Shown here one piece after another: positions 3,404 to 36,389 of a DNA stretch of 64,000 nucleotides. A program made the position numbers and the translations under genes. The stretch comes from an uncultured virus (IMG/VR IMGVR_UViG_3300048502_000073) (taxonomy: Duplodnaviria > Heunggongvirae > Uroviricota > Caudoviricetes), in the IMG/VR virus record IMGVR_UViG_3300048502_000073, one strand, 5' to 3'. Under the pieces are notes generated by a model. That model did not search any database. It had not been told where the DNA came from and worked only from the letters and a program-made list of their open reading frames with translations. How positions within the stretch are numbered: position 1 is the stretch's first letter; each line of letters starts with the position of its first letter.

Positions 3404-3766
3404 CCGATTGCCATGCCTGATAGGCTGCTTCCAGGTCTTCGCAGTCATACCATGCTTCTTCACTTTCCCCGACGAACCATGTCCATATATCTGGACTATA
3501 CCGAGTATACGACTCGCCGTCGGAAAACGTGACGATTTCGCCGTATCTTGGCCTCACTTGTTGAACGCTCAGCTCGCTCGTCATTTCGAGTCCTCCCCGT
3601 TCGGGATATTCCTGACCGATCCGTCTTTCTTGCCCGTCCACGGCTTCATGGGGGTCACGCTCTGCTTGGATGTCTCATTCAGCAGACCGCCCCAGCCGTA
3701 TCCGCCCTTGCCATGGTCGTGGTCGCGGTTCCAATCCGGTTCGCCCGGCTCGCCCTTGGGGTTCAT
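3390..3766 (-). CDS. Two small hypothetical proteins (about 3390-3587 and 3581-3766)
   Basis: Overlapping short ORFs continuing the minus-strand operon. Confidence 0.4.
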
Positions 3767-4047
3767 GGTGTCGGGACCTTCGCATTGAGCATGTTGGTTT
3801 TCTTGTCACTGCCGGCCGACGAACCGAGCCAGTAGTTCACCACCGCTCCGCCCATCGTCACAGCCGCGCCCTGCATCAGCTCCAGGCCGGTCTTGGTCAG
3901 GTAGGCGATCACGAAGGCCGCGGCAAAAATCAGGAGGGCCATCGCGCTGATGACCGTCTTTGCCCATGATGGTTCGTCATGAGTCGCGGCCACCGGCACA
4001 ACGGGCGTCGGGAGCGGGAAGGCTGACGGCGGCGGCTGGTCGCTCAT
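3763..4047 (-). CDS. Holin-like two-TM membrane protein
   Basis: Two hydrophobic helices, then VVNYWLGSSAGSDKK, a C-terminus typical of small phage membrane/holin proteins. Confidence 0.6.
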   Translation of the reverse strand: MSDQPPPSAFPLPTPVVPVAATHDEPSWAKTVISAMALLIFAAAFVIAYLTKTGLELMQGAAVTMGGAVVNYWLGSSAGSDKKTNMLNAKVPTP

Positions 4048-4355
4048 TAATGAAATACCCTGGTGTACCAAGCGATGACGATACCCGTGATAGCAACTCC
4101 CGACGAGAAAATCCAGGTTACCGCTCTGACCAAACCCGTTCGCTGTGCTTCTAGCTCCAGAAGACGATCCAGCTTCTCGTCCTGCCCGTCGATTTTTTTT
4201 GAAAGCTCGGCAAGCGCTGACCTCATTTCGACCTCAGCGCGCCTGGACCATTCTTCCAGCTTGCTGACACGGCCTTCTAGTCTCGCGAGGTCTACTTCCA
4301 GATTGGAGGGCAACTGCAATCGTCCCGATTGGTTCCGCGCTCTGCACTCTATCAA
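4047..4355 (-). CDS. Coiled-coil protein with C-terminal TM helix (possible lysis-cassette protein)
   Basis: LARLEGRVSKLEE heptads plus C-terminal hydrophobic segment; start uncertain. Confidence 0.55.
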   Translation of the reverse strand: MIECRARNQSGRLQLPSNLEVDLARLEGRVSKLEEWSRRAEVEMRSALAELSKKIDGQDEKLDRLLELEAQRTGLVRAVTWIFSSGVAITGIVIAWYTRVFH

Positions 4356-4602: not shown

Positions 4603-4603
4603 T

Positions 4604-4904: not shown

Positions 4905-6728
4905 TTAGGTCACAGGCGTGAAGCTGATGAAGTGGCTGCCGTTGAAAATAAACCAATAATCAGCGGCGGCCGTCGTGTTCGTCGCCAACGTGTCGCCCGC
5001 ATCATCCTGGATCGTGAGCGTCCCTGACGCCGAACCCGCCTGCCGGCGCACGTGGACCGTCGACCCCACTGCGACCGGCTGATTGCCGGTGACCGCCTGG
5101 ACAGCCTGCAGCGTGAGCGTGAAACTGGTGACAGAGACAGGCACCTCCAGCGTCGCGCCCGTCAATTCACCATAATAGGTGTATGTGGCCGACACCGGGA
5201 TCACGGCCTTGTCCAGATTGGACCCCATGGCGCCCCAGGTGTAGAGTCCCGTCCGTTCCGGCGTCAGGAAGTTTGCCGATGGCATGTGGCTATCGATGAC
5301 CACGTTGCCGGCAAAGCCCGTGCCGGTCGTGTCCTGGAACCGCATCTGGCGGATCGAATAGGTGCCGTTGTCATCGGCCGGCGCGTCGGGGCTGTTCACC
5401 ACGAACGAGGTGGTCACGTTCCCCGATACGGTCTGCAGGAAGTTCAGGGACTGCACCTGGACGTTCGATGGCGTGGCCGACGCGTCTCGGAACGCCTTGG
5501 CGGTGCCGGTGAAGTTGGCGCTCTGCACCACCCAGTTCTTCACGTTCACCGCGCCAAGGCGCACGTCGCTGGCCACGGTCTGCACCAAAATCGGCGAGGC
5601 GCCCGTGCTCTTGATGCCTTCGAGGTGGACGTTCTCCAGGACCGCGCCGACCGCGTCCTCCAGGTCGAGGATCACGTTGCCGCTGATCCAGGAGCACGTC
5701 AGGCCGGTGAACTTCGGCTCGGTCGATATGGTGGTGCCCAGCGTCAGGCAGTAGCCGGACAGCGTCCCGTAGGTCCCCGACACGCCATTGGACAGATACG
5801 TGTTGCTGAAGGTGTTGCTCGGCCCCAGAGCATTGGAAGCGTTCAGCAATGTGCGCTGCGCACCGTTGACGGTGATGTCGCCGAACGAGGACGCGATGAT
5901 GTTGGCATTGCTGCCGTTGTTCAGCAGCAAGCCGTCGTAGCCTGGATACGGGTTGCTCGGCGCCCCCACCGTCAGACCGCTGACCTTGCTGTTTGTCATG
6001 GCGCCGATCTGCACGGTCTCGCTCGAGGTGAGGCCGGACTGCGACACGCCATACTTGAACACGCCGCCGTCGAAATCGACCGCGTTGAATACGTTGGTGC
6101 CCGTCACATCGCCGATCGTCAGGATAGGCCCGCCTGGCGAGGTGCTGTAATACTGGACGAACACGCTGCCAGAGCGGTTGCCGCGCCACGAGAAGCCGCC
6201 GGCGACGTAGGGGATCGAGATGCCGCCCGCGCACGAAATCTCATACACGCCGATCGGCGCGAGAACTTGCAGGCCGTTCGTCTCGGCGTAGCTGATCGCC
6301 GCGTTGATGTTGGTGCAGTTGGTCTGCCTAACGCCGGTCGTCTGGCCGGCGCCGACAGTCACGCCGGGGTAAGTCGCGAGGTTCAGCGTCCCTGCCGACG
6401 GGCTGGAGATGGTATTGCACCCAAAGCCGGTGCCGCTGGTCCAGATCAGGGCGCTGACCGAGGTCGAGCACGAAGGAAGCGCCAGGCCGCTCGGCGTGGT
6501 CGCGGTCAGCGCGCCCAGGACGGTGTTGGCTGACAGTGACGGCAGGTTCGCCAGTCCGATCGTGCCGCACACCGGGGGAACGCCAGAGCCGTTGCCGAAC
6601 AGGAGCTGCGTGGAGGTGCAGGGGGTGTTCTGCAGCGTCGTGGGCACGGTCGTGGTCGTCGGGGTTGCCGCGTGCGCGCCGGTCGCCAGCAGCGTCAGCA
6701 ACCCGAGGATGAGGAAAAGTCTCTGCAT
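4905..6728 (-). CDS. Signal-peptide-bearing tailspike-like beta-helix protein
   Basis: MQRLFLILGLLTLLATGAHA signal; Cys-pair repeat; INAAISYA...PIGVY entry into a pectin-lyase-like body. Confidence 0.7.
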   Translation of the reverse strand: MQRLFLILGLLTLLATGAHAATPTTTTVPTTLQNTPCTSTQLLFGNGSGVPPVCGTIGLANLPSLSANTVLGALTATTPSGLALPSCSTSVSALIWTSGTGFGCNTISSPSAGTLNLATYPGVTVGAGQTTGVRQTNCTNINAAISYAETNGLQVLAPIGVYEISCAGGISIPYVAGGFSWRGNRSGSVFVQYYSTSPGGPILTIGDVTGTNVFNAVDFDGGVFKYGVSQSGLTSSETVQIGAMTNSKVSGLTVGAPSNPYPGYDGLLLNNGSNANIIASSFGDITVNGAQRTLLNASNALGPSNTFSNTYLSNGVSGTYGTLSGYCLTLGTTISTEPKFTGLTCSWISGNVILDLEDAVGAVLENVHLEGIKSTGASPILVQTVASDVRLGAVNVKNWVVQSANFTGTAKAFRDASATPSNVQVQSLNFLQTVSGNVTTSFVVNSPDAPADDNGTYSIRQMRFQDTTGTGFAGNVVIDSHMPSANFLTPERTGLYTWGAMGSNLDKAVIPVSATYTYYGELTGATLEVPVSVTSFTLTLQAVQAVTGNQPVAVGSTVHVRRQAGSASGTLTIQDDAGDTLATNTTAAADYWFIFNGSHFISFTPVT

Positions 6729-6742
6729 GACGGCCTTATACC

Positions 6743-9700
6743 TCATTTCGAGTGCAGCCCAGACGGTCTATTGATCGGCCCAACCTTGGTCGGCCCCAGC
6801 CAAGTGGCGGCGGCATTGGCCTTGTAATACCAGTTCCCGGACGTGTTCAGTTGCCAGATCAGGGCGTTTGCCCAGACAAGTTGCACCACGTTTGCGGTCG
6901 TGGTGTCGGTTGCCCCGTTGACCGATATCTGGCCGCCCGACGTGATCGAGAATTGCTCGCCGAGGGCATCGGTGATCGGCACCCCGACGCTCCGCGTGAT
7001 CGTGAAGTTCGGGCTCGCGGCCGAGCCCGTGACCATGACCGAGGTGTTCGCGGAACCGGTGTTGTTGTGCTGGTCCGTGACCGAGAAGGACACCGTGACG
7101 CTGACCGCGGCGCCGATCGGGTTTGGCCCCGCTGTCCAGGATGCCGGGTTCCCGCCCGACGCAGCGGTGAAGTAGTAGAACTGGCTGGATGTGTTCTCCA
7201 GCCAGACCATGGTCCCGACCAGATAGAGGAATTGCACATTGGCGCTGAACGCCGGCGACGATCCGTTCTCATAGGCAACGCCGCTGACGATCGTCCAGGT
7301 GTTGCCGGACGTGTCCATGAAGGAGCCTGGACTGCCGTTTTCGATCGTGGCAGCAGCCGGTGAACCGATCGGGTTCGTGCCGGCGACCCACGCGCTGCCG
7401 GACCACATATACCACATCTGGGTTGCGTTCACGGACCACACCACGCCGCTGACCAGCGCCATCTCGGTCACGTTGGCGGTGAACTGCCCGTTCGGGAGCA
7501 CGCCGTTGCGCAGCGACTGGCCGCCGGACCCCGTGCCGATCGACCAGATGTAACCGCTGCCGTCCACGAACGTCTCGCCCGTGTTTGCGTAGATGATGGT
7601 CGGACCCGGCACCACGATCGCCATAGTGCTCAGCAGGGAATTCAGCCCCGACAGCAGGCCGGTGAACATGAGGGTGCTTGTGCCCTGGCCGGACGGCTGC
7701 CCGCCGGCATACAGCTTAGCGCCGCTCGAAGCGGTCGCGGTCAGCGTCATCTGATCGTTCGGGTTCCCCGGGTCCGCGGCGGCCACGCCTGAGATCGGTG
7801 TCGTGGTGTTGTAAATCGCGGTTATCGAGCTTGGCGCCGTGACGGTTACCCCCGTGCCGCAGCTTGTCGTGGGGTTGGTCGAGGTCGGCGAGGACCAGGA
7901 ATTGGCGGGGATGCTCTTGTATTCCCATGTGCCGTTGGTCAGCCCTGCCCAGACCAAGCTGCTCACATAGGCCAACTCGTTCACGTTCGAAATCGTGCCG
8001 TCGACGGAGCCGTTGACCACGACTTGGTTGGAGCCATTCAGCGCCCAGGTAGCGGAGGGCGGCCCGGCGGAGGTGATCGCAGGTCCCACAGTGCGCACGA
8101 TGGTGCAGTTGGGCGAAATCGCGCCCGTGACGGTTACAGCGGTGGTGGCCGATCCCGTGGCCGAATGCGCATCCTCCACGGTGAAGGTGAGCGTCGGGTC
8201 TTCGACAACCGCGTCCATAAAGGTCATCGTGCCCAGGAGCGTGTTCAGCGCCGTGAGTGAGCCGGTGAAACTGATCGATCCAGTGCCGTTGCCCGTCGCG
8301 CCCGTCGCTGTGAGTGTCCCGCTTCCGGTGGACGTGCCGGTGAAGCTCATCGTGTCGTTGGGGTATGTCGAGTCTGTGGCGGACACGGAACTCACTGCGG
8401 TGACGGCCCCGGTGACCGCCGACAGGCTCGCGGGCGCGGTCACCACCGGATGTCCGGCGGGAGCAGCAACCGTCACGGGTGTCGAGGAATGCGCCGTCAG
8501 TGAGTGCTGGTCGGACACGGTAAAGGCCAGCGTCGAGGTCTCGACAGCCGAGTCGGTGAACGAGAGCGTCCCGAGCAGCGTGTTAAGTGCGTTCAATGTG
8601 CCCGTGAACGAGATCGAGGCTGTTCCGGACCCCGCCGCGCCGGTCGCCGTCATCTTCCCGCTTCCGGTCGCCGTCGCGCTGAACGTCATCGTATCAGCCG
8701 GATTGGCGGTATCTGACGCCGAGACGGGCGAGATCGCCGTCGCTGTGTTGGTCACCGCGCTCACGGCGGATGGCGACGTGATGGTGAGCGATCCAACGGT
8801 GCAGCTCGCCGTCGGGCTTGTGGTCGTCGGCGCCGACCATGCCTGCGATGGTATTGTCTTTGAATACCAGTTGCCGGCGGTGTTCAATTGCCACACCACG
8901 CCGCTCACGTAGGCCAGTTCGGTCACGTTGGCGGTGGTCGAATCGACTGTCCCGTCCACCACGACCTGGCCGGGCACGCCGGTCAGCGACCACGTGGCCG
9001 ATGGCGGGCCGACAGAGATGATCTGCGGGCCGACTGTCGTGATGATCGTGCAGTTCGAGCTTACCGGCGGTGTGACCGTGACGGCGGTCGTGTCGGTTCC
9101 GCTCAAGGAATGGGCGTCCTCGACGGTAAACGTCAGTGTGGGGTTTTCCGACACGGCATCGATGAACGACACGGTGTTCAGTAGCGTGTTGAGTGCATTC
9201 AGCGAGCCAGTGAATGTGATGGTGCTGGTGCCGTTGCCCGTGGCACCCGTGGCCGTCAGCTTACCGCTGCCGGTGGACGTGCCGGTGAAGGTCTGTGTGT
9301 CGTTCGGATAGGCAGTGTCCGTGGCCGTGATCGGGTTGACGGCGACCGACGCGTTTACCGCAGTCGCCACGCTGATCGGCGAGCTTATGGACGGCTTCGG
9401 CACAAGCGGCCCCTGCCCGGCTGCGATGTAGGCAGCGGTCGTGGTGCCGTAGGGCGAGGTCAGCGCGTTGGTGTCGTTCGTCAGGTTGTTGCAGCAGTCC
9501 CCCGAATCCCAGTTCCACGCAGAAGTCGAGAAACTGGTTTCCTGGACGGCGATGTAGTTGTTCTGGCCACTGGCGTCCTGCGACGTGCCGGTTGTGGACG
9601 GCCCATATTCGAAGATGCCCACCGGCGGCGTGTTGCTGTCGCCGGTCGGGATCGTCTGGTCGGCAGCCACTTCGGACAGGATGTAGTTATAGATCGTGGA

Positions 9701-11851
9701 CACCGGCACGACCGAGGACTGGCCGCCGACGACCCACGAATACTGGTGCTGCACCCAGACGACGTTGGTCATCGTGGCATAGGCCGAGATCGGCGTGAGG
9801 CAGAACCCGGACGTGCAGTTTTTCCCGATCGACCCTGGTGTCCCGCCGGCAATCGTGCTCAGCAGGATGATATTGTTGTTAGGAACGCCGCGTATCCCGT
9901 TGTAAATAGCGACTTCTTCGGCTGTAACCGGCGCCTGGGAGACACCGGTTCCGCCCGCTGCCACAGGTTCGTTCGGCGTTGCGAACCACACGAGGGCGGG
10001 GTTTGTCGCCGAACTGTTTACCCACGTCGCCCAGGAGGTATACCACCCCACCTCGGACGTGAGGTTGCTGCCGGTCTGGACGCTGCATGTCTGCGGGAAT
10101 GCGTAATTCTCGATGACCGTCACGATGCCCAGCGCCGTGAGCCTGTTCACGACCGTCCCCAGCGTCGCGGGCAAGTCGAGTGACCAGTCATACGGGTTGC
10201 TGCAAGACGCGCCGTTCAGGCCCGATGCGAGGATTACGAAATTGACCCCTGGGAAGAGGGTCGTCAGCGGCTGACCAAGCGAATTCAGGACGGCGCTGGC
10301 AACGGCATCATTCGAGTCGATGGTCACGCCGCGCGCCTGGAAGGCCAGGCCGTTCGGGGACAAGATTTGGCCGGCGCTCGTGATGCTGAAGTTCCCGAGT
10401 GTCAGCGGCGCGATGTCGATGATGGCCGGCTCATCGGCCACCGGGACCGTGATACTCCTGCCGCTTGCGATCGTCTGCGTCGGCGATGTGCCGGTGACTG
10501 TGTCGTATGCGGTCAGTCCGTAGGCCGGCCCGAAGCTGACCGTGACGCTGGTCGGCCCCACGGTGATCGGCTGGCTGGTCGTGAAGTTCCAGTTCGAAGC
10601 GTCGTCCCAGATGACAAGCTCGAAATGGCCGTTCGATTTCTGGAAGAGCTGGGTTTGCGCCGTCGAGGGCATGCCCGACAGCGTGTAGGACAGTGACCCG
10701 ACTGTGAACGTCCTTGCGTTCGGTCCTGTGTCCTTCAGGATCGTGGTGAAGTTGTGGAGGTAAGTCCCTGAAAGAAGAGGAGTCCCAGGCGATGACATCA
10801 GGCCGAAGCCGTCACCTGACGTGTCCAGCAGCGCATAAATGCTCAGGACAGTCTCGCCATACTGCCAGGCGACGAGGGTGCCGTTGACGATGCAGCGGCC
10901 CTTCTTATCCTCGTTTATGTTGGTCGTGCCGCCATTCGACGTGTGATAGCCGAACTCGGTCGCGACCCTGGGGAAAGCCTGCGCTGCGGCAAGACTGGAG
11001 TATCCGCTGTAATTCCCATTGTAGGTCGTGACGTTGTCCCAGGTCTGTTCGATCGCAAAAGCGTTGCCGGCATTGCTGTCATTCGGCTGACAGGCCGGCA
11101 GGATGCCCGGGGAGTGAAGGAACTGCTGGTCCTGTGGATAGATGTGGTTGTTCAGATACTGTCCGAAGTTGGTCCCCGCCGGCATGATGACGCCGGACGG
11201 GGTTGGCGTCGGGATCGTCAGGAATTGCATCCCGACGTTGTCACTCTCCTGCCCCGGTTTGGATGGCGCGAATATGGGCAGATTTTTCAGCGCGCTATCT
11301 GCAAGGATGGCCGGCACCCAGTCGCGGGTATACTGCGCCACCGGAAGCCACGTGCAGCCACCACCGCCGTATCCGCCAGACCCTGTGCATGCGGAGCTGC
11401 TGGCGTAGCCGGAACTTCCATAGTCGGCTGTGGGATAGAACAACCCCGGTTCGTTGATGCCCTCCAGCGCAAAGATGGCGTTTGCATTCACGGCCTGGAA
11501 CGCATGCGCCTGGGACACGAATGTCGCTGGCGTCTGCGTGCCAGAGCTTGGATACGGCACCTCCGCGTCAAACGTCACGCCGCCGTTCACCAGAGATGAA
11601 AACTCAATGTAGGGATTGGTGCCGGGCGTGAGATTGATGTTCAGGCCGTCGCGTGCGTGGGTGATCCCGAGGTAGTTGAAGTCGGCGAGTAGCTGCGCTC
11701 CGTTCGAACCGTAGGGGCTTCCGCCGCCGCTGATGCCCGCCTGGGTTGACAGCAGGTTGAGGAAGTCCGCGGCGCGCTGCGCCGTGACCTGCGCGCGGGC
11801 GACGCTCGCGCACAGGATGAACAGCAGGAGCCATGTGCCGAGCCGGCGCAC
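6743..11851 (-). CDS. Large secreted multidomain glycoside hydrolase (two clan GH-A-like domains, Ig/cadherin-like repeats, Trp-rich repeats)
   Basis: Signal MRRLGTWLLLFILCASVARA; EGINEP...ATEFGY and TPNEP...HQY...IFEYG catalytic pairs; repeated TFTGSLNALNTLL and WQLNTxGNWY units. Confidence 0.75.
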   Translation of the reverse strand: MRRLGTWLLLFILCASVARAQVTAQRAADFLNLLSTQAGISGGGSPYGSNGAQLLADFNYLGITHARDGLNINLTPGTNPYIEFSSLVNGGVTFDAEVPYPSSGTQTPATFVSQAHAFQAVNANAIFALEGINEPGLFYPTADYGSSGYASSSACTGSGGYGGGGCTWLPVAQYTRDWVPAILADSALKNLPIFAPSKPGQESDNVGMQFLTIPTPTPSGVIMPAGTNFGQYLNNHIYPQDQQFLHSPGILPACQPNDSNAGNAFAIEQTWDNVTTYNGNYSGYSSLAAAQAFPRVATEFGYHTSNGGTTNINEDKKGRCIVNGTLVAWQYGETVLSIYALLDTSGDGFGLMSSPGTPLLSGTYLHNFTTILKDTGPNARTFTVGSLSYTLSGMPSTAQTQLFQKSNGHFELVIWDDASNWNFTTSQPITVGPTSVTVSFGPAYGLTAYDTVTGTSPTQTIASGRSITVPVADEPAIIDIAPLTLGNFSITSAGQILSPNGLAFQARGVTIDSNDAVASAVLNSLGQPLTTLFPGVNFVILASGLNGASCSNPYDWSLDLPATLGTVVNRLTALGIVTVIENYAFPQTCSVQTGSNLTSEVGWYTSWATWVNSSATNPALVWFATPNEPVAAGGTGVSQAPVTAEEVAIYNGIRGVPNNNIILLSTIAGGTPGSIGKNCTSGFCLTPISAYATMTNVVWVQHQYSWVVGGQSSVVPVSTIYNYILSEVAADQTIPTGDSNTPPVGIFEYGPSTTGTSQDASGQNNYIAVQETSFSTSAWNWDSGDCCNNLTNDTNALTSPYGTTTAAYIAAGQGPLVPKPSISSPISVATAVNASVAVNPITATDTAYPNDTQTFTGTSTGSGKLTATGATGNGTSTITFTGSLNALNTLLNTVSFIDAVSENPTLTFTVEDAHSLSGTDTTAVTVTPPVSSNCTIITTVGPQIISVGPPSATWSLTGVPGQVVVDGTVDSTTANVTELAYVSGVVWQLNTAGNWYSKTIPSQAWSAPTTTSPTASCTVGSLTITSPSAVSAVTNTATAISPVSASDTANPADTMTFSATATGSGKMTATGAAGSGTASISFTGTLNALNTLLGTLSFTDSAVETSTLAFTVSDQHSLTAHSSTPVTVAAPAGHPVVTAPASLSAVTGAVTAVSSVSATDSTYPNDTMSFTGTSTGSGTLTATGATGNGTGSISFTGSLTALNTLLGTMTFMDAVVEDPTLTFTVEDAHSATGSATTAVTVTGAISPNCTIVRTVGPAITSAGPPSATWALNGSNQVVVNGSVDGTISNVNELAYVSSLVWAGLTNGTWEYKSIPANSWSSPTSTNPTTSCGTGVTVTAPSSITAIYNTTTPISGVAAADPGNPNDQMTLTATASSGAKLYAGGQPSGQGTSTLMFTGLLSGLNSLLSTMAIVVPGPTIIYANTGETFVDGSGYIWSIGTGSGGQSLRNGVLPNGQFTANVTEMALVSGVVWSVNATQMWYMWSGSAWVAGTNPIGSPAAATIENGSPGSFMDTSGNTWTIVSGVAYENGSSPAFSANVQFLYLVGTMVWLENTSSQFYYFTAASGGNPASWTAGPNPIGAAVSVTVSFSVTDQHNNTGSANTSVMVTGSAASPNFTITRSVGVPITDALGEQFSITSGGQISVNGATDTTTANVVQLVWANALIWQLNTSGNWYYKANAAATWLGPTKVGPINRPSGLHSK

Positions 11852-14425
11852 TTAGTAATTCGTCCTCGTTCCGGCCCAGAAGACCCCCGCACTTTGCGGC
11901 GTGCCGCTGGCCGCGGTGATGACCGCCGTGAGGGTCTGTCCGCGGGTGATCGTGTTCGCCGCGCTGCCGCACGTCGTGGTCACGGGCGTGCTGGATGTGA
12001 CCACGATCCCGGTGCAGCTCGTCACGGCCACGCCGTTGATGTAGAGGCCGACCGTGAAGCTGGGCGTCGTGCCGCTCGTGAAGGTCGTCACCGTGCCGAT
12101 CGTGCCGGATGTGTATTCCCACGGCTCGATCTGCTCTGTGGTGTTGTAGATGGTCTGGCCGGAATCCCAATACCAACCGCCGCCTGTCGGTTGCGTCAGC
12201 AGGCCGATCCCCGTCGAGGCGAGAAAGTTGGAGAAGCCGCCGCCGCTCACCGATGTCGCCGCCAGGGCGGTGAAGCTGCCCGCCGCCGCCGCTGTCCCGC
12301 CGATCGGTGGCGGAGATGTCAGGATCGAGGCGAGCGTTTCGTTCCCGAGCACGCCGCCGTTGTTGTAGAGCAACTGCCCGTTGACGCCGTTGGCGATCGT
12401 CGACGTGCCGACCGTCAGCGTCCCGCCGCCTGTGATGGTGTTGCAGCCGAATCCAGTGCCGCTGGCCCACGTGAGCGCGTTCGAGGCATTGCTGCACGAG
12501 GGCATGGTGAGCGGCCCCGGGTTGGTCGCAGTCACCGCGCCGAGCACCGTATTGGCCGACACGGGCGCGAGCGCAATGGTCCCGGAGGTGGTGATCGTGC
12601 CGCCCGACAAGCCTGCGCCTGCAGTGATGCTCGTGACCCCGCCGCCACCGCCGCCGCTGCTGGCGACCCACTGCGCTTCAACAACCTGCGTGTTCAGCGG
12701 GATGACGGCCGAGAACGTGATGACCGATCCCGATAGAGTCCAGGTGTTGGCGCTCTGATGCACGCCATCGAAGGTGATGGAGATCGCCGCGGGGGAGCTA
12801 GGCGTGGTCGAAAGCGTTAGTTGCGTGGTCGTGCCGGGCGTATAGTTTGTGCCGGCAATGAAGTCCTGGACCACAGCCGTGCCGCCGCCACCACCGCCGC
12901 CCGTGATGGTGTTGCACCCGAAGCCGGCACCCGTCGCCCATGTGAGCGCTGAATTCGAGGTCGAGCACGAGGGCATGTTCAGCGGCCCGGGCGTCGTGGC
13001 CGTGACGGCGCCGAGGATTTGGTTCGCCGCGATCGACGCAAGGCTGATCGTGCCGGAACTCGTGATGGTGCCGCCTGAGAGCCCTGGGCCGGCGGTGATC
13101 GCCGTCACTGACCCGCCGCCGCCCGAACCCGAACTTTGCACCCACTGGATTTCGACCACTTGGGTATTGAGCGGGATGGCCGATGCGAAGGTCAGCGTTG
13201 TGCCGAACAGCGACCACGTGTTCGCCGACTGGTGGACACCGTCGAATGACACGCTGATCGCCGCGGTGTTGCTGGGCGTGGACGACAATGACAGCGATGT
13301 CGTCGTTCCTGGCGTGAAGTTAGTCCCGGCCAGGAAGTCTTGGACCACCGCGGTGCCGACGCTCGCCGACGCGTTGCACCCGAAGCCGGCACCCGTGGTC
13401 CACGTCAGCGCACTCGTGGCCGTGGAGCATGATGGCATACTCAAAGGACTCGGCGTCGTCGCTGTCACTGCGCCCATAACCGTGTTCGCAGTGACAGCCG
13501 CCAGCGCGATCGTGCCCGTCGTGGTGATAGTCCCGCCGGACAGCCCGACGCCCGCGGTGATCGAGATGACGGAGCCCGATCCGCCGCCGCCGGTGATGAT
13601 GTTGCACCCGAAGCCGCCGCCGGATGTCCAGGTCAGCGCGCTCTGCGTGGTGGAGCACGACGGCATGTTCAGCGCGCTGGGCGTGGTCGCGGTCAGCGCC
13701 CCGAGCACTTGGTTCGCGGACAGCGCTGTCAGGTTGGTGTAGGGCAGGAAGCCCGTTACACCGGTCGTCAGCGGGAGCCCGGTGGCGTTCGTGAGCGTGA
13801 CCGATACCGGCGTGCCGAGGATGGGCGCCACGAGCGTCGGCCCGGACGATAGGACCGGGCTGCCGGTGCCGGTCGGGCTAACCCCTTGGATGGTGCTGGA
13901 GTTGGTCCAGACGGCGACCTGCCCAGCCGTTGGCACGCCAGAACTGGAGACATTACCGCCCATGGTCCCAACGGCTACGCCGTTGATGAAGATTTCCGGC
14001 GCGTTGATCGTCCCGTAGCCCATGTTCCCGCCGGTCGGGTTGCCGACGACGAGTGAGGTCGGACTGAACGTCGTGATCGGCAGCGAAAAAATCGTGCCGT
14101 TCACGTTGAAGTTTAGCGTGTTGCCCGCGCCAGGCCCGAACAAGCTGATGGTCGGCACGCCGCCGACATAGCCCATGCACAGTGTCTGATAGGTCTGGTA
14201 TGTGGGCGCCGACTGGTCGCAGATACCAAGGCCCGAGTTGATGACGCCGACGCCGGTTAACGCCCCCGTGGCCGGCGTGGCGGGTCCGGCATCCCCGGCG
14301 ACTCCATTGGTGACGACTGCTAAGCCGTGGCCGGGGGTGACACGGCCTGACTGAAGGATGCCCTGGGCCGACGCGGCGGTGGTCAGCAGAAGCAGCGCCA
14401 CCAGGAAACGAGCGATCAAACCCAA
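11852..14425 (-). CDS. Signal-peptide-bearing tail-fibre-like repeat protein
   Basis: Signal MGLIARFLVALLLLTTAASA; four MPSCS...ALTW..G.GFGCN repeats and two VVQDF.AGTN...FDGVHQSANTW domains; GAGGAGG RBS, TTG start. Confidence 0.75.
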   Translation of the reverse strand: MGLIARFLVALLLLTTAASAQGILQSGRVTPGHGLAVVTNGVAGDAGPATPATGALTGVGVINSGLGICDQSAPTYQTYQTLCMGYVGGVPTISLFGPGAGNTLNFNVNGTIFSLPITTFSPTSLVVGNPTGGNMGYGTINAPEIFINGVAVGTMGGNVSSSGVPTAGQVAVWTNSSTIQGVSPTGTGSPVLSSGPTLVAPILGTPVSVTLTNATGLPLTTGVTGFLPYTNLTALSANQVLGALTATTPSALNMPSCSTTQSALTWTSGGGFGCNIITGGGGSGSVISITAGVGLSGGTITTTGTIALAAVTANTVMGAVTATTPSPLSMPSCSTATSALTWTTGAGFGCNASASVGTAVVQDFLAGTNFTPGTTTSLSLSSTPSNTAAISVSFDGVHQSANTWSLFGTTLTFASAIPLNTQVVEIQWVQSSGSGGGGSVTAITAGPGLSGGTITSSGTISLASIAANQILGAVTATTPGPLNMPSCSTSNSALTWATGAGFGCNTITGGGGGGGTAVVQDFIAGTNYTPGTTTQLTLSTTPSSPAAISITFDGVHQSANTWTLSGSVITFSAVIPLNTQVVEAQWVASSGGGGGGVTSITAGAGLSGGTITTSGTIALAPVSANTVLGAVTATNPGPLTMPSCSNASNALTWASGTGFGCNTITGGGTLTVGTSTIANGVNGQLLYNNGGVLGNETLASILTSPPPIGGTAAAAGSFTALAATSVSGGGFSNFLASTGIGLLTQPTGGGWYWDSGQTIYNTTEQIEPWEYTSGTIGTVTTFTSGTTPSFTVGLYINGVAVTSCTGIVVTSSTPVTTTCGSAANTITRGQTLTAVITAASGTPQSAGVFWAGTRTNY

Positions 14426-14470
14426 GTCACCGCGCCTCCTCGCGCGCCTGTCAATCTCCTTATAGGCGCG

Positions 14471-14845
14471 TTACCACTGTGCTTGCACGGTCGCTGTTGT
14501 CGGCGATATCAACGTCATGCTGGTGGATGGCTGATAGAAGCCGTAATATTGCCCCGCCGGAACGGCCAGACCGTTCGAACTGGTGCAACTGCCGCCGAGC
14601 GGGCAGATGTAGATGGTGGTGGTCCCATTGTTGAGCACGTAGAGCATGCCGGGGACCGGTGACGGCCAAGCGCCGGACGAGGGGCCGGTTGTCAGCGTCG
14701 AGAGCAGGGTGCTGGAATTGCCTGCCGAGAGCGTCCCGAAGCCCTTGACTGCGGTTGGGCCGATCGCGACCACATAGGCCGGGCTGGACTGGGCCAAGGC
14801 CGCATGGCCAAATACCAGGCCAAGAAACAGAACGAGATACTTCAT
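14471..14845 (-). CDS. Small secreted beta-sandwich protein (paralogue of 16672-17151)
   Basis: Signal MKYLVLFLGLVFGHAALA; shared KGxGTLSA...IYxCPLGGxCxSSxG...ATVxAQW. Confidence 0.75.
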   Translation of the reverse strand: MKYLVLFLGLVFGHAALAQSSPAYVVAIGPTAVKGFGTLSAGNSSTLLSTLTTGPSSGAWPSPVPGMLYVLNNGTTTIYICPLGGSCTSSNGLAVPAGQYYGFYQPSTSMTLISPTTATVQAQW

Positions 14846-14872
14846 CTTAGGAAAATGCCTCCACGAGCGCCT

Positions 14873-16678
14873 TCAATATGCCTGACAAGAAAAATGAACC
14901 ACGTCACCGCTCACTGTCGTTCCCGCTATTGTGGCCGTTGTAGTGGAATTCGCCGTTTGCGCTTGTGCGTCCGCGGGGGTTGTCCAATCCGCCGCAGTGC
15001 AGTTCCACCCATTAGGAGCGGTCATACCCGTGGCGCCGTTCATAGTGATGACAGCCGTGCAGGTTCCTGTTGTTCCAGATGTGTACGTCCCAGATGTGCC
15101 GCTTCCCACCGTTGCGCTTATACTACACCCGGAGGTTGTAAACTTCGTAGCGCCGACAACAACCGGGCCGTTCGTTAACAAACCATTAGCCGGCGAAGCG
15201 CCGTTACTCCCGACTGTCAATCCATGCGTGAGAAAACTAGCTGCCGCAGCGTTTAGTTCCACACCTTGCGTGCCGCCCGATGACAGGTAGAGCTGTCCGT
15301 TATCATTGCTAGATGCAACACCCTGGATGGCGGCAACGACGGAACCACCCCCCGCCGTTTTCAACGTAAACCCAGTGAACTGCGTCCCGCTATTTAGCGT
15401 CACCGGCACGTTGAAGTTCTGTATGCCCCCTTGTGGGTTAGTTGACCCCGATATGTATGCGGCGTTTCCGAACGCCGCCGTTACATACGCTTGGTTTCCC
15501 CCTGATGTTGCATACATAAGGTTGTCAACAGGAATATATGTGGAATTGTCGTTGTCGATAAGGTATTTAACATTGTTACCTGTGCCTTGATAATAGAACC
15601 ACACATTGCTCAACGACATGTTTGCCAAGTTTCTAATATAAATATGTGAATTAGTGTTGTTATTGGCTAAAGAATTATCTGTGAGGTGGACATTCGATAA
15701 GCCAACAACACCTCCCGATGTCAGGGTTCCTGGGTCAATGTGGATACCGTCACCTTCGTTTGCCCCAATAGTTGAGCCTGTAATCCAAAGATATGATCCG
15801 AAGCCGGATGATACTACGACGCCATGTGTCCCGTTATTGTAAATAGCGTCGTTACCAAGAGTTATTGCTGACGCGAAATACAGAACGATACCACTACCAA
15901 CACACGCGCCTAGACTTGAGTTACTCACAGACCAGTCGCTGACCCCGGAAAAGTATAAGCAGTCACTTTGAGCATAATTAACAATAACTTTATCTATAGT
16001 TCCAAGGTTTCTGTTCGTCCCTACATATACTCCTTTTGTTAGAGCATCCTGAATGTTGACATTCTCAATGTTGGCACCGACCCCATATTGGGTCCCAACA
16101 CTATAAGGTGCATTAGTAAGCTCTATGCCGTTACTTGTGCCGGTCTGATTGCTGCTGTTACCATTTATTGAAAACCCAAAAAACTGACTAGGCGTGGTGG
16201 TCCATGTTGATAGGTTCCCCAAAGGGTTGGCGGCTGATTTAATAACAGATCCATTCGAGCCAGCCTTCAGTGTAATCGTAACAGCCGAAGGTCCGTCCCC
16301 GTATAACCGAATCGGTTGTGAGATATTTATTCCTGATGTAATGTAGTTACCAGGAGGTAAATAGACACCGGGGATGCCTACCTGACTATAATAATTCGAA
16401 GTCACAAGCTGATTCTGGGCGGCTGTTACCGCTGCGTTTATAGCTGCGGTATCATCGGTTGATCCATCACCCTTCGCACCATAATCTTTAACATTTACGA
16501 CAAAAGCATAGCGGTTGGCTTCCGAAATTGCCGTCGTCCCGCCCGTCGCCGTCACAATCGCGCCCGACGCGTTCTGGCCCGCCAAAGGGAACGGACCATT
16601 GTTCGGTTGCGCCCAGGCTGGAAGCGTGAGCAGGACTAAGCAGAAGGCCAACAGCAATTTATGGAAAAAATTCACCAT
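14873..16678 (-). CDS. Signal-peptide-bearing tailspike/depolymerase-like beta-helix protein
   Basis: Signal MVNFFHKLLLAFCLVLLTLPAWA; VNVKDYGAKGDGSTDDTAAINAA...VYLPPGNY (pectate_lyase_3-type start); low-GC body. Confidence 0.8.
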   Translation of the reverse strand: MVNFFHKLLLAFCLVLLTLPAWAQPNNGPFPLAGQNASGAIVTATGGTTAISEANRYAFVVNVKDYGAKGDGSTDDTAAINAAVTAAQNQLVTSNYYSQVGIPGVYLPPGNYITSGINISQPIRLYGDGPSAVTITLKAGSNGSVIKSAANPLGNLSTWTTTPSQFFGFSINGNSSNQTGTSNGIELTNAPYSVGTQYGVGANIENVNIQDALTKGVYVGTNRNLGTIDKVIVNYAQSDCLYFSGVSDWSVSNSSLGACVGSGIVLYFASAITLGNDAIYNNGTHGVVVSSGFGSYLWITGSTIGANEGDGIHIDPGTLTSGGVVGLSNVHLTDNSLANNNTNSHIYIRNLANMSLSNVWFYYQGTGNNVKYLIDNDNSTYIPVDNLMYATSGGNQAYVTAAFGNAAYISGSTNPQGGIQNFNVPVTLNSGTQFTGFTLKTAGGGSVVAAIQGVASSNDNGQLYLSSGGTQGVELNAAAASFLTHGLTVGSNGASPANGLLTNGPVVVGATKFTTSGCSISATVGSGTSGTYTSGTTGTCTAVITMNGATGMTAPNGWNCTAADWTTPADAQAQTANSTTTATIAGTTVSGDVVHFSCQAY

Positions 16679-17151
16679 TGCGCCACTACCGTAGCCGTAG
16701 TGGCTGCAATAACTGTCATTGAAGTAGAAGCATTGAAGAAACCATAATAACCGCCAACAGCAATCGGTATCCCCACAGATGATGAGCAGGTTCCCCCCAA
16801 AGGACAGACATAGATCGTCCCCGCGCTTGCCGCTGCGTTTACAACATATATCTGTCCGGGCGAAGTTGGCCACACAGCGCTGTTCGGCCCGGTCGTCAAT
16901 GTGGAGAGCAGCGCAGAAGCGTTCGTGGCAGAAAGCGTTCCATAGCCCTTGATCGCTGGAGGCGAAGACGATGCCGTTACCGATCCCGATATAGTGGCGG
17001 TCGTAGGACACGGGTTTGAACTAGATGATGGCTGGAATATAGGCGCACCAGTGCTACTGGTCCCGGTTTGGCAGTATAGATCCGACTCCGCCGCTCTAGC
17101 CGACGCGCCCGCCAGCAAGAGCGCGAGGAAGACGAGGAGCCGAAGGATCAT
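16672..17151 (-). CDS. Small secreted beta-sandwich protein (paralogue of 14471-14845)
   Basis: Signal MILRLLVFLALLLAGASARA; ends ATVVAQW. Confidence 0.75.
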   Translation of the reverse strand: MILRLLVFLALLLAGASARAAESDLYCQTGTSSTGAPIFQPSSSSNPCPTTATISGSVTASSSPPAIKGYGTLSATNASALLSTLTTGPNSAVWPTSPGQIYVVNAAASAGTIYVCPLGGTCSSSVGIPIAVGGYYGFFNASTSMTVIAATTATVVAQW

Positions 17152-17435
17152 TTCTTTCTCCGCACGATGTCGATCAGCAGGCAGAACGTGGCATATCCCG
17201 CGAGGGCAATGAGCTGCTTGTTCGTCGGCTCGCCGCCGTTCCACAGCACTTGCGACAGCAAAGCCCAGACCGACCCGACCAGGATCAGGGTAAAGGCGTT
17301 GGTAATCGCGGTGAGCGTGCGTGCCGCGAGGGAGCGAAGCGCCAGGGCGAGCAGAGCCGCTGACTTGTTCGGCTCAGCAGCCGGGGGCGCCACTTCCTCA
17401 TCGTTGATGAGTTTGAAACCCTTCGCACCGCTCAT
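17148..17435 (-). CDS. Two-TM membrane protein
   Basis: Two hydrophobic helices, basic C-terminus. Confidence 0.6.
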   Translation of the reverse strand: MSGAKGFKLINDEEVAPPAAEPNKSAALLALALRSLAARTLTAITNAFTLILVGSVWALLSQVLWNGGEPTNKQLIALAGYATFCLLIDIVRRKK

Positions 17436-17665
17436 GACTTCTCCATCGTCTGCACGCCGTTCACTTTTTGCCGTATAGCACCAAATGTGGCCCTAGTCTC
17501 ATCCTCAGACGGCTGACCCTTCGCTACCTTTGCGGTGGCGATATGGAACGCCGACACAGCCTTGAAGATGTCCACCCTGTCGTGGAGCGATTCCGCGGCT
17601 TCGGCCCGGGCGAGAAGGTCCAGGGCGAGCTTGTCCAGGCCGGACTTCACGGTTTTGGCGCTCAT
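17432..17665 (-). CDS. Hypothetical protein
   Basis: Translationally coupled within the late operon. Confidence 0.6.
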   Translation of the reverse strand: MSAKTVKSGLDKLALDLLARAEAAESLHDRVDIFKAVSAFHIATAKVAKGQPSEDETRATFGAIRQKVNGVQTMEKS

Positions 17666-19257
17666 TGGCTATCTCCAAGAACTTGCGCCACCCCCGGCGC
17701 CGCTGCCGGACCAATCCCCGCGCCAATCGCGCGCCGCACTTGGCCAGGGTTAACGTAGCTGCGGAGGGCGGTCATCCCAGGGCCGGTATAGGGCAATGTG
17801 CCGGCGCCGACGCCCAGCGCGCCGGGGAGACTGAATGCGCCACCGCCCCCGAGGGCGGCCATCCAAGCGAGCCGCTCCGGTGTCCCGCTGTCCCGCACCG
17901 TCTGCGGAAGCACACTTTCCCCGGCCGCAGCTTTATCCTGCATCAGCGCCTCGCCCTTTGCATAGGCCCGCTTGTCCTTTGACTTGTCCCGCGCCTTGAT
18001 CGAACCCGCCAGTTGCGATGGTGTGAATACGCCATCCTTTGCGCCGAGATAACCAGCCGCGCGCTCGATCGTCTTGTAGTGGGCGTTCGCCTCATCAATG
18101 GCCCTCTTGAGCGGCGCGAGCGTGGGGTTAGTCCGATCCAGCATGCTATCCACGGACGCGTCGATACGCTTGATCAGTCGCCCCATGCGGTTCACGTCCG
18201 GGCTTTGATCAGCGAGCATCTTGTCCGCCATATTTTGCAGATCGGTCCCGATGTTCTGCGCCCTCTCGCCAGAGATCGTGCCGTTCTTCTCGAAACGATC
18301 CCCGATGTCATGGTTGATCACGCCCAGAAGCTCTTTCTGCAGGTCGGGCCGATGCGAAAGCGTCCGCTGCGCGTCCTGGACTACGCCCATCATTTCCTTG
18401 CTGAAATCGGGATCATACTGCCCCCTCATGCGCGGGACGATTTGCTCGTAAGCATCGCTGATGGCCTTTGACATGAACTGAATAGCAGGTCTGCCAGCCT
18501 CAATGTCGTCGGGCATCCTGACGCCGATCGACTTCAGCCCATCGTTTATCAGTCCCTTGTCAAAGTCCTTGATGCTTGTGCCTTGCGCGCCCCTCACGAA
18601 TGACCCCAGGACGGGAATGTTGGACAGCACATCCTCGCCTTTCTTCCAGAAGCCCCCAGCCATCTGGCCCGGCGTCATCCTGACACCCATGTCTGACAGC
18701 GTTTTGGCGGCGCCTGAAAGTTGCGGCGCAATCGCTTTGCCGGCAACGTCCATGACCTTCCCGCCGGCCGCGCCGCCCGCCACCTGCCCGGCCTTCTCCT
18801 GCCAGAAGTTGTTCCCTGTCACCGGTTCTGTCAGCGCGCTGATCGCCCCCGCGGCAGGCGCCACAACTTTCGGCGCAAGGCCGAGCGCCTTTACCGCCGG
18901 GCCGCCCGCGTAGTTGATTGGATTGACGACATCCAGTGCCATCTGCTCCCAGTTGGTGCCCTTGTCGAAACCACGGGCCGCCTGGATTTTCTGGTCGTTC
19001 TCCCGCTGCATGGCGTCGTCGGCTTGCGCGCGTGGTATCCATCCTTTCTCGGGGGCGTAGGCCGGAATTGGCAGGACGCGGCCCGCCAACTGCTCTGCCC
19101 CAATGAACGGCTTGGCGAACTCCCGGCCGAGGCGTTCCAGGCGCGATGGTGCTTGCTGCGGAGCGTCGTTGCCCCAATCGGCGGCACCCGGCGCCGCGGC
19201 TGGTGCCGGCGGTGCGCCCTGCTGGATCGGGTCATTCCCCCAGTCGTCAGCCATCAC
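17662..19257 (-). CDS. Internal virion/DNA-ejection protein
   Basis: Helical, Ala/Gly-rich; TPGQ and DSGTPER motifs seen in podophage ejection proteins; position after nozzle. Confidence 0.65.
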   Translation of the reverse strand: MMADDWGNDPIQQGAPPAPAAAPGAADWGNDAPQQAPSRLERLGREFAKPFIGAEQLAGRVLPIPAYAPEKGWIPRAQADDAMQRENDQKIQAARGFDKGTNWEQMALDVVNPINYAGGPAVKALGLAPKVVAPAAGAISALTEPVTGNNFWQEKAGQVAGGAAGGKVMDVAGKAIAPQLSGAAKTLSDMGVRMTPGQMAGGFWKKGEDVLSNIPVLGSFVRGAQGTSIKDFDKGLINDGLKSIGVRMPDDIEAGRPAIQFMSKAISDAYEQIVPRMRGQYDPDFSKEMMGVVQDAQRTLSHRPDLQKELLGVINHDIGDRFEKNGTISGERAQNIGTDLQNMADKMLADQSPDVNRMGRLIKRIDASVDSMLDRTNPTLAPLKRAIDEANAHYKTIERAAGYLGAKDGVFTPSQLAGSIKARDKSKDKRAYAKGEALMQDKAAAGESVLPQTVRDSGTPERLAWMAALGGGGAFSLPGALGVGAGTLPYTGPGMTALRSYVNPGQVRRAIGAGIGPAAAPGVAQVLGDSQ

Positions 19258-21329: not shown

Positions 21330-22498
21330 TACTGCTGAACCGTCACGCCGCTATTACCCAGCCTGATCCCACCGGCGAGCGCCGACGACAAGCCACCGAT
21401 CGCCTGCGTCGTCTGGCCGTCCATCGCCGTCTGGTTCTGGATAAGGCTCTGATAAATCGAGGAGCTAAGCTGCGTTTCGCTAAGGCCCTGCTGGAGAAGC
21501 TGATCCGCGAGCGTCGCGCCCTGATAGACGGCCTGCTGCTGGAGGGAGGCGATGTCCTGCACCTCGCCGGAAGACCCCGCTGCCACGCCCATACCGGCGT
21601 ATTTCGATTTGATCGCGGAGATGCCAGCCTGCGTCGCGGCATTGACCGACGCCTGGATCGCGGGCGGCAGGGTGCCCGTCTCCAGGTAGGATTGCAGAAT
21701 TTGGCCCTGCGAGGCGGAATTGGCCGCCAGGCTGTTCAGCGCGTTCGTGCCCTTGGGCGCCTGATCGGCGAACAGGTCTTTCGCCAGGCCGAGGCCCGCC
21801 ACGCCGACCCCAAGCGATTGTAGCGGGTGCGCTTGCAGCGCGCTGCCGGCCGAACCGAGAAAGCTCCCGATCCCTCCGCCCCCGCTGTTGCCCGCGGCCC
21901 CCGCCGCTGCCGGCGTTTCCCAGGCCGAGTTGCCGATGGTGCCGGCGCCCGTTACCGGGGCGCCAATCCCGTTCGCTGCTGCGGCAGCAGGCGAAGCCCC
22001 CGCAGCGGCCCCGGCATCCGGGACCGTGGAACTCGCCAGCGTCAACGCGTCTGTCGGCGCAGCACCAGCGCCACCGGCGCCGACGCCCGCGGCCGCGGAT
22101 GTCAGATCAACAGGAGCCGCGCCGACCGGAGCCGCGATTGATGCCGCGGCCGGACCGGCGGCGGCGAGCGGGGTCGTGCCAATCGGCGCCGCCAATGCCC
22201 CGGCACCAGCGCCTACGTCCGCCGCCCCGGCGGCTGCCGTGGTGCCTGCGCCGACACCAAGTGCGTCGGCTGCACCAGCCGCGCCTGCGCCGACCGCTCC
22301 GAGTGCGTCCCCTGCGCCAGCCAGTCCAGCCGCGCCGGCTGCCACATCGCCAATCCCGTTTGCTGCAAGCGCCGCTTCTGTCGGGGCAGCCCAGAGAGCT
22401 GACAAGCCACCCAAGTCGGCGGCACCCTCAGCAGCACCGGCCGCAAGACCAGCGTCTGCTACTCCAAAAAGCGACGCGCCCGCTGCTGCCAAGCCCAT
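21329..22498 (-). CDS. Ala/Gly-rich DNA-ejection (pilot) protein
   Basis: Low-complexity Ala/Gly N-terminus and Gln-rich helical C-terminus; P22 gp7-like position. Confidence 0.6.
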   Translation of the reverse strand: MGLAAAGASLFGVADAGLAAGAAEGAADLGGLSALWAAPTEAALAANGIGDVAAGAAGLAGAGDALGAVGAGAAGAADALGVGAGTTAAAGAADVGAGAGALAAPIGTTPLAAAGPAAASIAAPVGAAPVDLTSAAAGVGAGGAGAAPTDALTLASSTVPDAGAAAGASPAAAAANGIGAPVTGAGTIGNSAWETPAAAGAAGNSGGGGIGSFLGSAGSALQAHPLQSLGVGVAGLGLAKDLFADQAPKGTNALNSLAANSASQGQILQSYLETGTLPPAIQASVNAATQAGISAIKSKYAGMGVAAGSSGEVQDIASLQQQAVYQGATLADQLLQQGLSETQLSSSIYQSLIQNQTAMDGQTTQAIGGLSSALAGGIRLGNSGVTVQQ

Positions 22499-22499
22499 G

Positions 22500-23582: not shown

Positions 23583-23588
23583 TTGGCG

Positions 23589-23966
23589 TTAGCCAGCCTG
23601 AACGGTGCTCGGCGCAGGAGTAGGCTCGGGGGTCGGCTCTGGCGTGGTGGTCGCCGGCGCGGTCAGATCGGCCGCCGGGATCGCTGACAGGGCAGCGGCG
23701 AGGTTCGTGTTGGCGGTGTTGACCTGCGCGTCCAGAGCGGAAATCTGTTCGGCGGTTGCACCGGAACCAGACGCATCCAGCGATGCGATCGTGGCCTTCA
23801 GCGCCATGATATCGGTCACAGCGGTTTGGACGGTCGCGGTCAGCGTTGCGATATCTGCGGTCAGCGTGGTGATCGTAGTGCTCATCTTGGTATATTCCTG
23901 TTCAAGAGCGGTTACGCGGGCAGCCAAGGCGTGGACTTCGGACTCGGTGGCAAACGGCAGTCTCAT
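23589..23966 (-). CDS. Coiled-coil hypothetical protein with Pro/Thr/Glu tail
   Basis: Heptad pattern and TPEPTPEPTP tail. Confidence 0.55.
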   Translation of the reverse strand: MRLPFATESEVHALAARVTALEQEYTKMSTTITTLTADIATLTATVQTAVTDIMALKATIASLDASGSGATAEQISALDAQVNTANTNLAAALSAIPAADLTAPATTTPEPTPEPTPAPSTVQAG

Positions 23967-29381: not shown

Positions 29382-29444
29382 CAGTTGACCGCCGTTACCG
29401 TGGCCCACGCAGAGCCGGTGAATTGATCAGAAGTAAGCGCATAA

Positions 29445-31123: not shown

Positions 31124-31149
31124 GCGTCACCACCTCCCGGCCCCGCAAC

Positions 31150-32289: not shown

Positions 32290-32301
32290 CGTTCCGACTC
32301 C

Positions 32302-33357: not shown

Positions 33358-33373
33358 GTCTCTACACTCCTAC

Positions 33374-33967: not shown

Positions 33968-33970
33968 GGA

Positions 33971-34144: not shown

Positions 34145-34153
34145 TTGAATACC

Positions 34154-34591: not shown

Positions 34592-34600
34592 GGCTCTGGA

Positions 34601-36370: not shown

Positions 36371-36389
36371 TTCTAACCCCCCTGAATGC

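Follow-up and report, generated by a model that had tools for sequence, protein, structure and literature searches.

Morphogenesis of tailed phages is taught as a wholly cytoplasmic process, and these phages finish their particles in the cytoplasm. The spikes and fibres of short-tailed phages, such as P22 gp9, T7 gp17 and the SU10 fibres, are leaderless proteins that fold in this compartment. Here we analysed the IMG/VR record IMGVR_UViG_3300048502_000073, a stretch of 64,000 nucleotides (the window) that is nearly the whole genome (~64 kb) of an uncultured short-tailed phage (podophage). Within its late operon, six tightly packed minus-strand genes, s1 to s6 (4905-17151), each begin with a Sec-type leader, which, in contrast to the leaderless appendages above, is predicted to be cleaved. 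At least one of the products, s4, is probably the main tail fibre of this phage family and would join the particle when the cell bursts. Receptor-binding appendages of tailed phages are known; what would be new is the proposed route of production, of which the searches below gave no account.

In their architecture these proteins resemble the described appendages. The products of s2 and of two further genes of the window, t1 and t3 (Table 1), have the neck motif of tailspikes and the start of a beta-helix, as in P22 gp9, T7 gp17 and the SU10 fibres, and s4 shares with these proteins a constant N-terminus and a variable C-terminus. Spike and fibre genes of short-tailed phages lie beside the adaptor and nozzle genes, which is also the case in the relatives of this phage. 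Like P22-type tailspikes, s2 has a right-handed beta-helix behind a neck helix, but it lacks their head-binding domain, and the domain that s4 shares with a spike has gained a Cys pair; with this pair and its leader, s4 departs from the leaderless, cytoplasm-folded type of fibre.

Export of virion proteins has precedents outside this family. The pIII and pVIII proteins of filamentous phages likewise have cleavable leaders and are oxidised in the periplasm, but they are membrane-anchored and their particle is extruded through the envelope, whereas s1-s6 have no anchor. In Cellulophaga phages, the products of phi18:3 gp085-087 and phi10:1 gp091-094 are recorded in GenBank as structural by tandem mass spectrometry (MS/MS), and all 7 pass the leader rule given below, against 0 of the 12 other translated MS/MS proteins of these phages. 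Like s1-s6, they are encoded by consecutive late genes; the lysis genes follow directly, the leaders are of the Sec type and the residue at +1 is often Gln. They differ in the Bacteroidota host and in having only 0-3 Cys. They are not homologous to s1-s6, and therefore are a precedent for the route and not for the family. We found no text that takes up these leaders; the structural assignment is that of the GenBank notes, and the proteomics tables may bear on the precedent.

The mosaic adhesive trimer (MAT) fibres of Bdellovibrio are phage-like and trimeric; their signal peptide is followed by a conserved, beta-rich N-terminal domain of ~130 residues, the tips vary and disulfides are present. 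They are encoded by the cell and shown on its surface, whereas s1-s6 are phage-encoded (PMC10769870). The only structural match in this comparison (Z 2.2) is to a C-terminal fragment, and the likeness to the N-terminal domains is one of layout. Lambda Lom is likewise a signal-peptide gene inside a tail-fibre region, but it encodes an outer-membrane barrel of the host cell, whereas s1-s6 are themselves fibre- or spike-like (PMC12309495). Literature searches of titles and the first part of abstracts, mostly excluding subscription papers and supplements, did not turn up any account of tail fibres being exported in tailed phages, and the portions available of five papers (PMC5026251, PMC12014285, PMC13001222, PMC9658991 and PMC6102473) contain nothing relevant to them.

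Leaders, cysteines and mature parts of the six late proteins

Leaders were scored with a rule of our own, which takes into account a positive n-region, an uncharged hydrophobic h-region and small residues at -3/-1. The rule is passed by 6/6 of the s1-s6 proteins and by 0/19 upstream late genes (from the terminase to the holin-like gene at 17148), in agreement with a preliminary description of the window, made from the letters alone, which had proposed six consecutive genes with Sec-type signals and quoted four of the N-termini exactly. As background, the rule is also passed by 8 of 4404 internal windows of these proteins to which a Met had been prepended, by 2 of 135 head-module genes from 20 genomes (the clade set described below) and by 772 of 12000 shuffles of the six N-termini. 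Judged by these sequence counts, the six leaders are not due to chance.

The gaps to the preceding gene, from s1 to s6, are -4, -7, 27, 45, 0 and -4 nt, the first being an ATGA overlap with the holin-like gene. This coupling by overlap or abutment fixes the start codons ahead of the hydrophobic segments, and it also ties s1-s6 to the late transcript. The preliminary description had allowed for true starts further downstream; these are ruled against by the overlap with the preceding stop and, in s4, by the lack of any alternative start between the h-region and codon 84. A promoter and terminator scan gave a signal at chance level.

No surface anchor was found in s1-s6: they have no lipobox, no barrel or YadA-type anchor, no autotransporter domain and no transmembrane helix, and no stretch of the mature parts reaches a mean Kyte-Doolittle value of 1.9 over 19 residues (the highest is 1.83). 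All mature parts have an even number of Cys (4, 6, 2, 12, 14 and 8), which bears out the pairing of cysteines noted earlier; their richness had been overstated, since their density in the exported set (0.9-2.5%) compares with 0.8% for the leaderless spike and 1.9% for an adaptor. Export of the six proteins and their disulfide folding in the periplasm are very likely in our view, as leader conservation, the link between leaders and cysteines and the swap of a cassette in a sibling genome strongly support what had been proposed. For s1, s2, s3, s5 and s6 the evidence for export is the same as for s4, and attachment to the particle is less certain. The six are probably not one uniform class.

The mature parts are indeed of the spike, fibre, glycoside hydrolase and small-domain types that had been recognised by eye. 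The s1 and s3 proteins are paralogous jelly rolls (56% identical). The structure model of the jelly roll has a predicted local distance difference test (pLDDT) value of 89, and the best PDB matches of s1 are PirA and the Ena spore appendage (Z 7.6, root-mean-square deviation 2.3-2.6, 71 aligned residues); the fold search also gave many unnamed small phage proteins and yields no function. Among 50 s1 homologues (one of them s3 itself), 44 pass the leader rule and one more does so at an internal Met, three are leader-like by eye and two are truly leaderless. The family is found in fibre slots of myoviruses (the myovirus-like L004 and L008), in podovirus tail slots and in the terminase-portal interval (L005-L007, L011), with neighbours that mostly bear leaders.

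The s2 gene is a swappable cassette of low GC content (0.49). Its beta-helix is pectate-lyase-like (Pfam PF12708, E 1e-15), with PHROG tail and tailspike matches. The C-terminal domain of s2 lies at the C-end in 82/82 homologues, with four Cys in 81 of them, and 62 of these 82 proteins pass the leader rule, so that homologues of both s1 and s2 largely keep their signals, a check that the preliminary description had suggested. An Atlas lead of 0.89, below the trust line, relates this domain to the C-terminal domain of the K1 capsule-lyase tailspike. In a sibling contig (63,659 bp; 99.8-99.9% identical to the window across the 20 kb compared), 1.4 kb is replaced between equally identical flanks, so that the bodies of s1 and s2 are both new and both still follow a leader. 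The sibling s1 keeps the leader, which passes the rule, and the first module in front of a new body, and the sibling s2 has a new leader (read by eye) and body with the same C-terminal domain. The swap retains the leaders, and therefore this slot turns over fast but keeps export.

The second domain of s5 belongs to GH5 (PF00150, 34.4 and 37.9 bits, cut-off 23.5), with an acid/base NEP motif and a nucleophile Glu motif, which we take to be catalytic from the GH-A consensus. For the first domain and a repeat region towards the C-terminus, matches were obtained to cellular proteins encoded on 11 plasmids. The C-x16-C repeat is common to s4 (four copies) and s6 (one copy), and the beta-rich region of s6 has no family match in Pfam or PHROG.

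A domain in leader-bearing and leaderless forms

The s4 protein is the conserved, predicted exported fibre of the clade. Its residues 29-118, directly behind the leader, match the N-terminus of the leaderless spike (33% identity, E 7e-6), and relative to the spike copy two Cys were added. As it carries a single domain in both a predicted exported and a cytoplasmic form, this genome allows the idea to be tested directly. A profile of the N-terminal domain retrieved 1136 clusters at E <= 0.001, and we compared leaders and cysteines in the best 150 of these plus one (151), after dropping two ambiguous rows and one partial row. At least two Cys are present in the domain of all leader-bearing members (98/98), versus 1/50 leaderless members, and that single record starts inside a leader. 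A Fisher test on these counts takes no account of kinship, and its value is not used as a probability. The predicted cleavage sites keep small residues at -3/-1 and have Gln at +1 in 57/93. A quick tree with the Cys masked (147 rows, 99 columns) gave 4 leader-state changes, versus a mean of 41 after shuffling.

Structural searches were less informative. The monomer model of the s4 N-terminal domain has a predicted template modelling score (pTM) of 0.48, and fold searches with it found nothing in the PDB or BFVD. For the spike's copy, Atlas leads below 0.9 point to Mtd_N and to the N-terminal domains of T4 gp9/10, and a PDB sequence search with the domain profile gave only chance matches to transketolase. 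A complex prediction with three s4 N-terminal domains and the larger adaptor scored 0.00, which is neutral as evidence.

For the comparison within the clade we used 19 near-complete relatives, 11 retrieved via the domain and 8 via the capsid protein alone, which together with the window make 20 genomes. Only 2 of 249 core virion genes pass the leader rule, and a leader-bearing s4 relative is present in all 20 genomes (17 by a strict pattern and 3 by hidden Markov model or BLAST), including 8/8 of those chosen by the capsid alone. The N-termini of the s4 relatives match in 234 of 272 ordered pairs and the C-termini in 1 of 272; receptor-binding proteins that attach by a constant end have this arrangement of a constant N-terminus and a variable C-terminus. 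Of the 88 fibre-like genes (at least 120 amino acids (aa), Ser+Thr+Gly at least 29%), 54 have a leader. Directly behind adaptor or capsid-decoration genes there are 11 distinct full-domain genes, 4 with a leader and 7 without; one locus (L015) has leader-bearing and leaderless full-domain genes in tandem, and in a complete genome (G002) the gene between adaptor and nozzle encodes a leader-bearing protein of 936 aa with 20 Cys. All reading frames of six genomes with terminal repeats were also checked for leaderless Ser/Thr/Gly-rich open reading frames (ORFs) of at least 150 aa. Besides core genes and two short unrelated ORFs, none was found in four of them (G003, G004, G009 and G018); G002 has one of 286 aa and G007 two of 163-183 aa.

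In many relatives (L024, L025, L027, L028, L034, L035, L040, L041, L043 and others) a leaderless gene of ~160 aa, absent from the window, lies directly upstream of the exported fibre and shares with it no more than ~30 residues at the start of the s4 domain. As a candidate, its product could serve in the cytoplasm as an adaptor for docking. We rejected the possibility that s3 is its exported form (hhalign probability 0.7%).

Proposed assembly at lysis and the alternatives

We propose that particle assembly is divided between two compartments, a picture that as a whole we consider fairly probable. The head, the tail core and one leaderless tailspike would assemble in the cytoplasm, and the six late proteins would pass through Sec, be cleaved and fold with disulfides in the periplasm, where they would be retained because they have no anchor. 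In Gram-negative bacteria Sec export, cleavage and Dsb oxidation follow from a leader. Holin action and lysis would mix the compartments, and with the opening of the inner membrane finished particles would meet the folded proteins. The s4 protein, as a trimeric fibre, would dock via the N-terminal domain that it has in common with the leaderless spike. For s1, s2, s3 and s6 a role as further appendages or branches is likely, and s5 would act as a glycanase, either bound to the particle or free. The tailspikes of P22 and the long fibres of T4 likewise join finished particles as the last step, which also works in vitro. The observed basis of this route is the leaders, their conservation, the shared domain, the Cys pairing and the gene order, and from these we infer cleavage, the disulfides, the trimer and the time and site of docking.

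The preliminary description had envisaged either docking onto virions at lysis or display and release by the cell. Homology and gene position make it likely that s4 is on the virion and docks at lysis, whereas display on the cell surface finds no support, given the lack of a lipobox, anchor or autotransporter domain. Release as soluble enzymes may occur, mainly for s5, whose docking on virions at lysis we give slightly less than an even chance.

Several observations weigh against this proposal. The clade has no virion, host or cultured relative, and therefore the attachment of s4 stays inferred. The genome has its own leaderless spike, so the exported set is perhaps not needed for adsorption, and the nozzle and the capsid-decoration-like protein contain beta-rich inserts that may bind cells. 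Across the 20 genomes, 34 of the 88 fibre-like genes scored as leaderless (14 of at least 300 aa and 20 short), some of these being mis-sorted core genes or missed starts; G009 also has a leaderless gene of 139 aa, below the cut-off, and G004 one of 447 aa after the lysis genes. The leader-Cys link is clean but founded on few events, since the strongly supported branches of the tree force just one leader change, and a single origin is possible. Moreover, two leaderless members of the s1 family (of 50) still have the Cys pair, and this family occurs in unrelated phage types and slots, and therefore has no morphotype-specific docking site. In s2 the ~100-aa N-terminal head-binding domain is missing, with ~40 residues from the cleavage site to the NVKDYGA motif and a neck that begins ~20 residues past the predicted site, and in its family it is the C-terminus that is constant, the N-termini being variable. 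The enzyme domains of s5 match cellular proteins on plasmids of Roseomonas, Rhizobium and Granulicella, and no phage record. Three similar exported genes (t1-t3), one with a twin-arginine-like leader, are located on the other strand and away from the late operon, an arrangement that agrees with a role outside the virion as well. The Cellulophaga proteins are non-homologous (one 25-residue match, E 0.007) and could be co-purified. Finally, disulfides can form spontaneously in virion tail proteins without a periplasmic step, according to one report (PMC13576161).

Some of these points are also those expected if the proteins were exported, stockpiled in the periplasm and then set free by lysis, to clear capsule or biofilm for the progeny as depolymerases, lectins or decoys, without ever being on the particle. 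The resemblance of s5 to cellular glycoside hydrolases, the missing N-terminal anchor of s2, the leaderless spike and the lack of a membrane anchor in any of the six all fit such a role, which we nevertheless regard as unlikely. It leaves unexplained why s4 keeps the spike's N-terminal domain in 20/20 genomes, why leader-bearing copies are found in the adaptor-nozzle slot and how the genomes without a leaderless fibre adsorb. For s5 alone, which may be a free soluble enzyme, the chances of free release are about even.

It is quite improbable that the six proteins have their effect on, or from, an infected cell or lysogen that is still alive, whether as adhesins, by modifying the surface or by shielding against superinfection, in the way of moron genes or Bdellovibrio MAT fibres. 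They should be made late, since their genes overlap or abut those of the ejection and holin-like proteins with no promoter or terminator signal above chance, and they have no lipobox, membrane anchor or autotransporter domain. The 12 capsid matches in bacterial genomes are all contigs in metagenome-assembled genomes (MAGs), from mixed taxa, and the five that are annotated show only phage-type genes around the capsid gene. Such a role would agree with the separate plus-strand unit formed by t1-t3 behind a helix-turn-helix (HTH) gene, with the presence of a weak invertase-like gene (PHROG E 6e-5) and with the MAT fibres, in which a conserved beta-rich domain likewise comes immediately behind the signal peptide (PMC10769870).

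That the N-terminal segments are uncleaved tethers, or leftovers of capture from secreted cell proteins, with cytoplasmic folding from downstream starts, is very improbable: cleavage is predicted by our own rule and the family has leaderless members, but the starts are fixed as described, small residues are kept at -3/-1 with frequent Gln at +1, and no leader-bearing member lacks the Cys pair.

Returning to assembly in two compartments, we lean towards a broader reading, in which a large clade of podophages (60-68 kb) has shifted its receptor-binding proteins to the secretory pathway of the host. Its docking domain would occur in two forms, one cytoplasmic and free of Cys, the other exported and locked by disulfides. 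Some members would depend on the exported form alone, so that their infectious virion is completed only when cytoplasm and periplasm mix at lysis; the present genome would have the two together, along with spikes routed through Sec and Tat and acquired from phages as well as from cells. If this is correct, the host Sec, Tat and Dsb systems become infectivity factors and lysis becomes an assembly step, and any adhesin or glycanase that the host secretes and stabilises by disulfide bonds could be taken up by the phage as a module of host range. Receptor-binding proteins of this kind would be overlooked by annotation pipelines in which a signal peptide marks a gene as non-structural.

Genome context and other features

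The late operon is on the minus strand, in the order terminase- and portal-sized genes, major capsid, two adaptors, leaderless tailspike, nozzle-like gene, ejection-type proteins (one with an SLT domain), two small genes, s1-s6 and two holin-like genes (Table 1). Capsid, adaptor, nozzle and ejection genes, with no sheath and no tape measure, make this a short-tailed Caudoviricetes module. The major capsid protein has a PHROG major head match (E 2e-10) and the adaptors a Pfam SU10 adaptor match (E 9.5e-13); the portal, scaffold, nozzle and ejection labels come from gene order and size without a profile match, and the terminase, which also has no profile match, was named in the same way. The leaderless tailspike and t1-t3 had escaped the preliminary description.

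Table 1. Positions of the features in the window (aa, amino acids)
Feature	Position	Strand	Description
s1, 159 aa	16672..17151	-	20-aa leader, ~35-aa two-Cys module, ~95-aa jelly roll with invariant CPxGGxC loop
s2, 601 aa	14873..16678	-	23-aa leader, tailspike-type neck, right-handed beta-helix, C-terminal 4-Cys domain
s3, 124 aa	14471..14845	-	18-aa leader and jelly roll, s1 paralogue
s4, 857 aa	11852..14425	-	20-aa leader, ~105-aa N-terminal domain, Ser/Thr/Gly-rich fibre with four C-x16-C repeats
s5, 1702 aa	6743..11851	-	20-aa leader, clan GH-A-like domain (NEP, TEFG), GH5 domain (NEP, EYG), Ser/Thr-rich repeats
s6, 613 or 607 aa	4905..6746 (or start 6728)	-	leader, one s4-type C-x16-C repeat, long beta-rich region
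Leaderless tailspike	26769..29381	-	usual slot between adaptor and nozzle genes; s4-type N-terminal domain minus the Cys pair
Core virion module	17148..38282	-	no leaders; portal-sized gene, scaffold, major capsid, two adaptors, nozzle-like, ejection-type including SLT domain
Two small holin-like membrane genes	3763..4355	-	closing the late operon; named by shape and position, no profile match
t1	58320..60095	+	twin-arginine-like leader (SRRxxL), tailspike-type neck, beta-rich body
t2	60095..60520	+	leader and small 4-Cys domain
t3, 1120 aa	60517..63879	+	leader, tailspike-type beta-helix, 18 Cys

The t1-t3 cassette lies on the strand opposite to the late operon, behind the HTH gene (57573-58244). 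The leader of t1 is presumably of the twin-arginine type, and relatives of t2 occur in the late-operon exported cluster of two other genomes.

A search of IMG/VR with the capsid protein gave 65 loci, nearly all 69-100% identical and many from contigs of 60-68 kb. No cultured relative was found, the capsid matching only two uncultured records at 32-33%, and pieces of s4, the spike, s2 and s5 matching none. As to the host, the cellular matches of s5 and several MAG bins give a loose hint of Alphaproteobacteria or Acidobacteria. Three peat metatranscriptomes contain 5-7% of the genome's words, as short scattered contigs, which has no bearing on expression. Profile scans found no endolysin among the 60-odd ORFs of the window, outside which ~0.4 kb of the genome may fall; in relatives, endolysin-like genes, read by eye, come right after the exported cluster.

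Two further ORFs bear leaders. One of 110 aa (4568-4900, plus strand) is antisense between s6 and the holin-like genes and is identical in the sibling; the other, a Cys-containing protein of 220 aa (2494-3156, minus strand) with no Pfam match, lies among early recombination genes. A family 25 glycosyltransferase gene (34832-35788, plus strand) is inserted on the opposite strand within the head module. The larger adaptor, the post-capsid gene and the nozzle (29445-32289 and 24768-26768, minus strand) have a GGSGY-type beta insert in common and match the same PHROG families. In two relatives, G026 and G031 (L141-L144 and L161-L164), four adaptor paralogues are found in a row instead of two.

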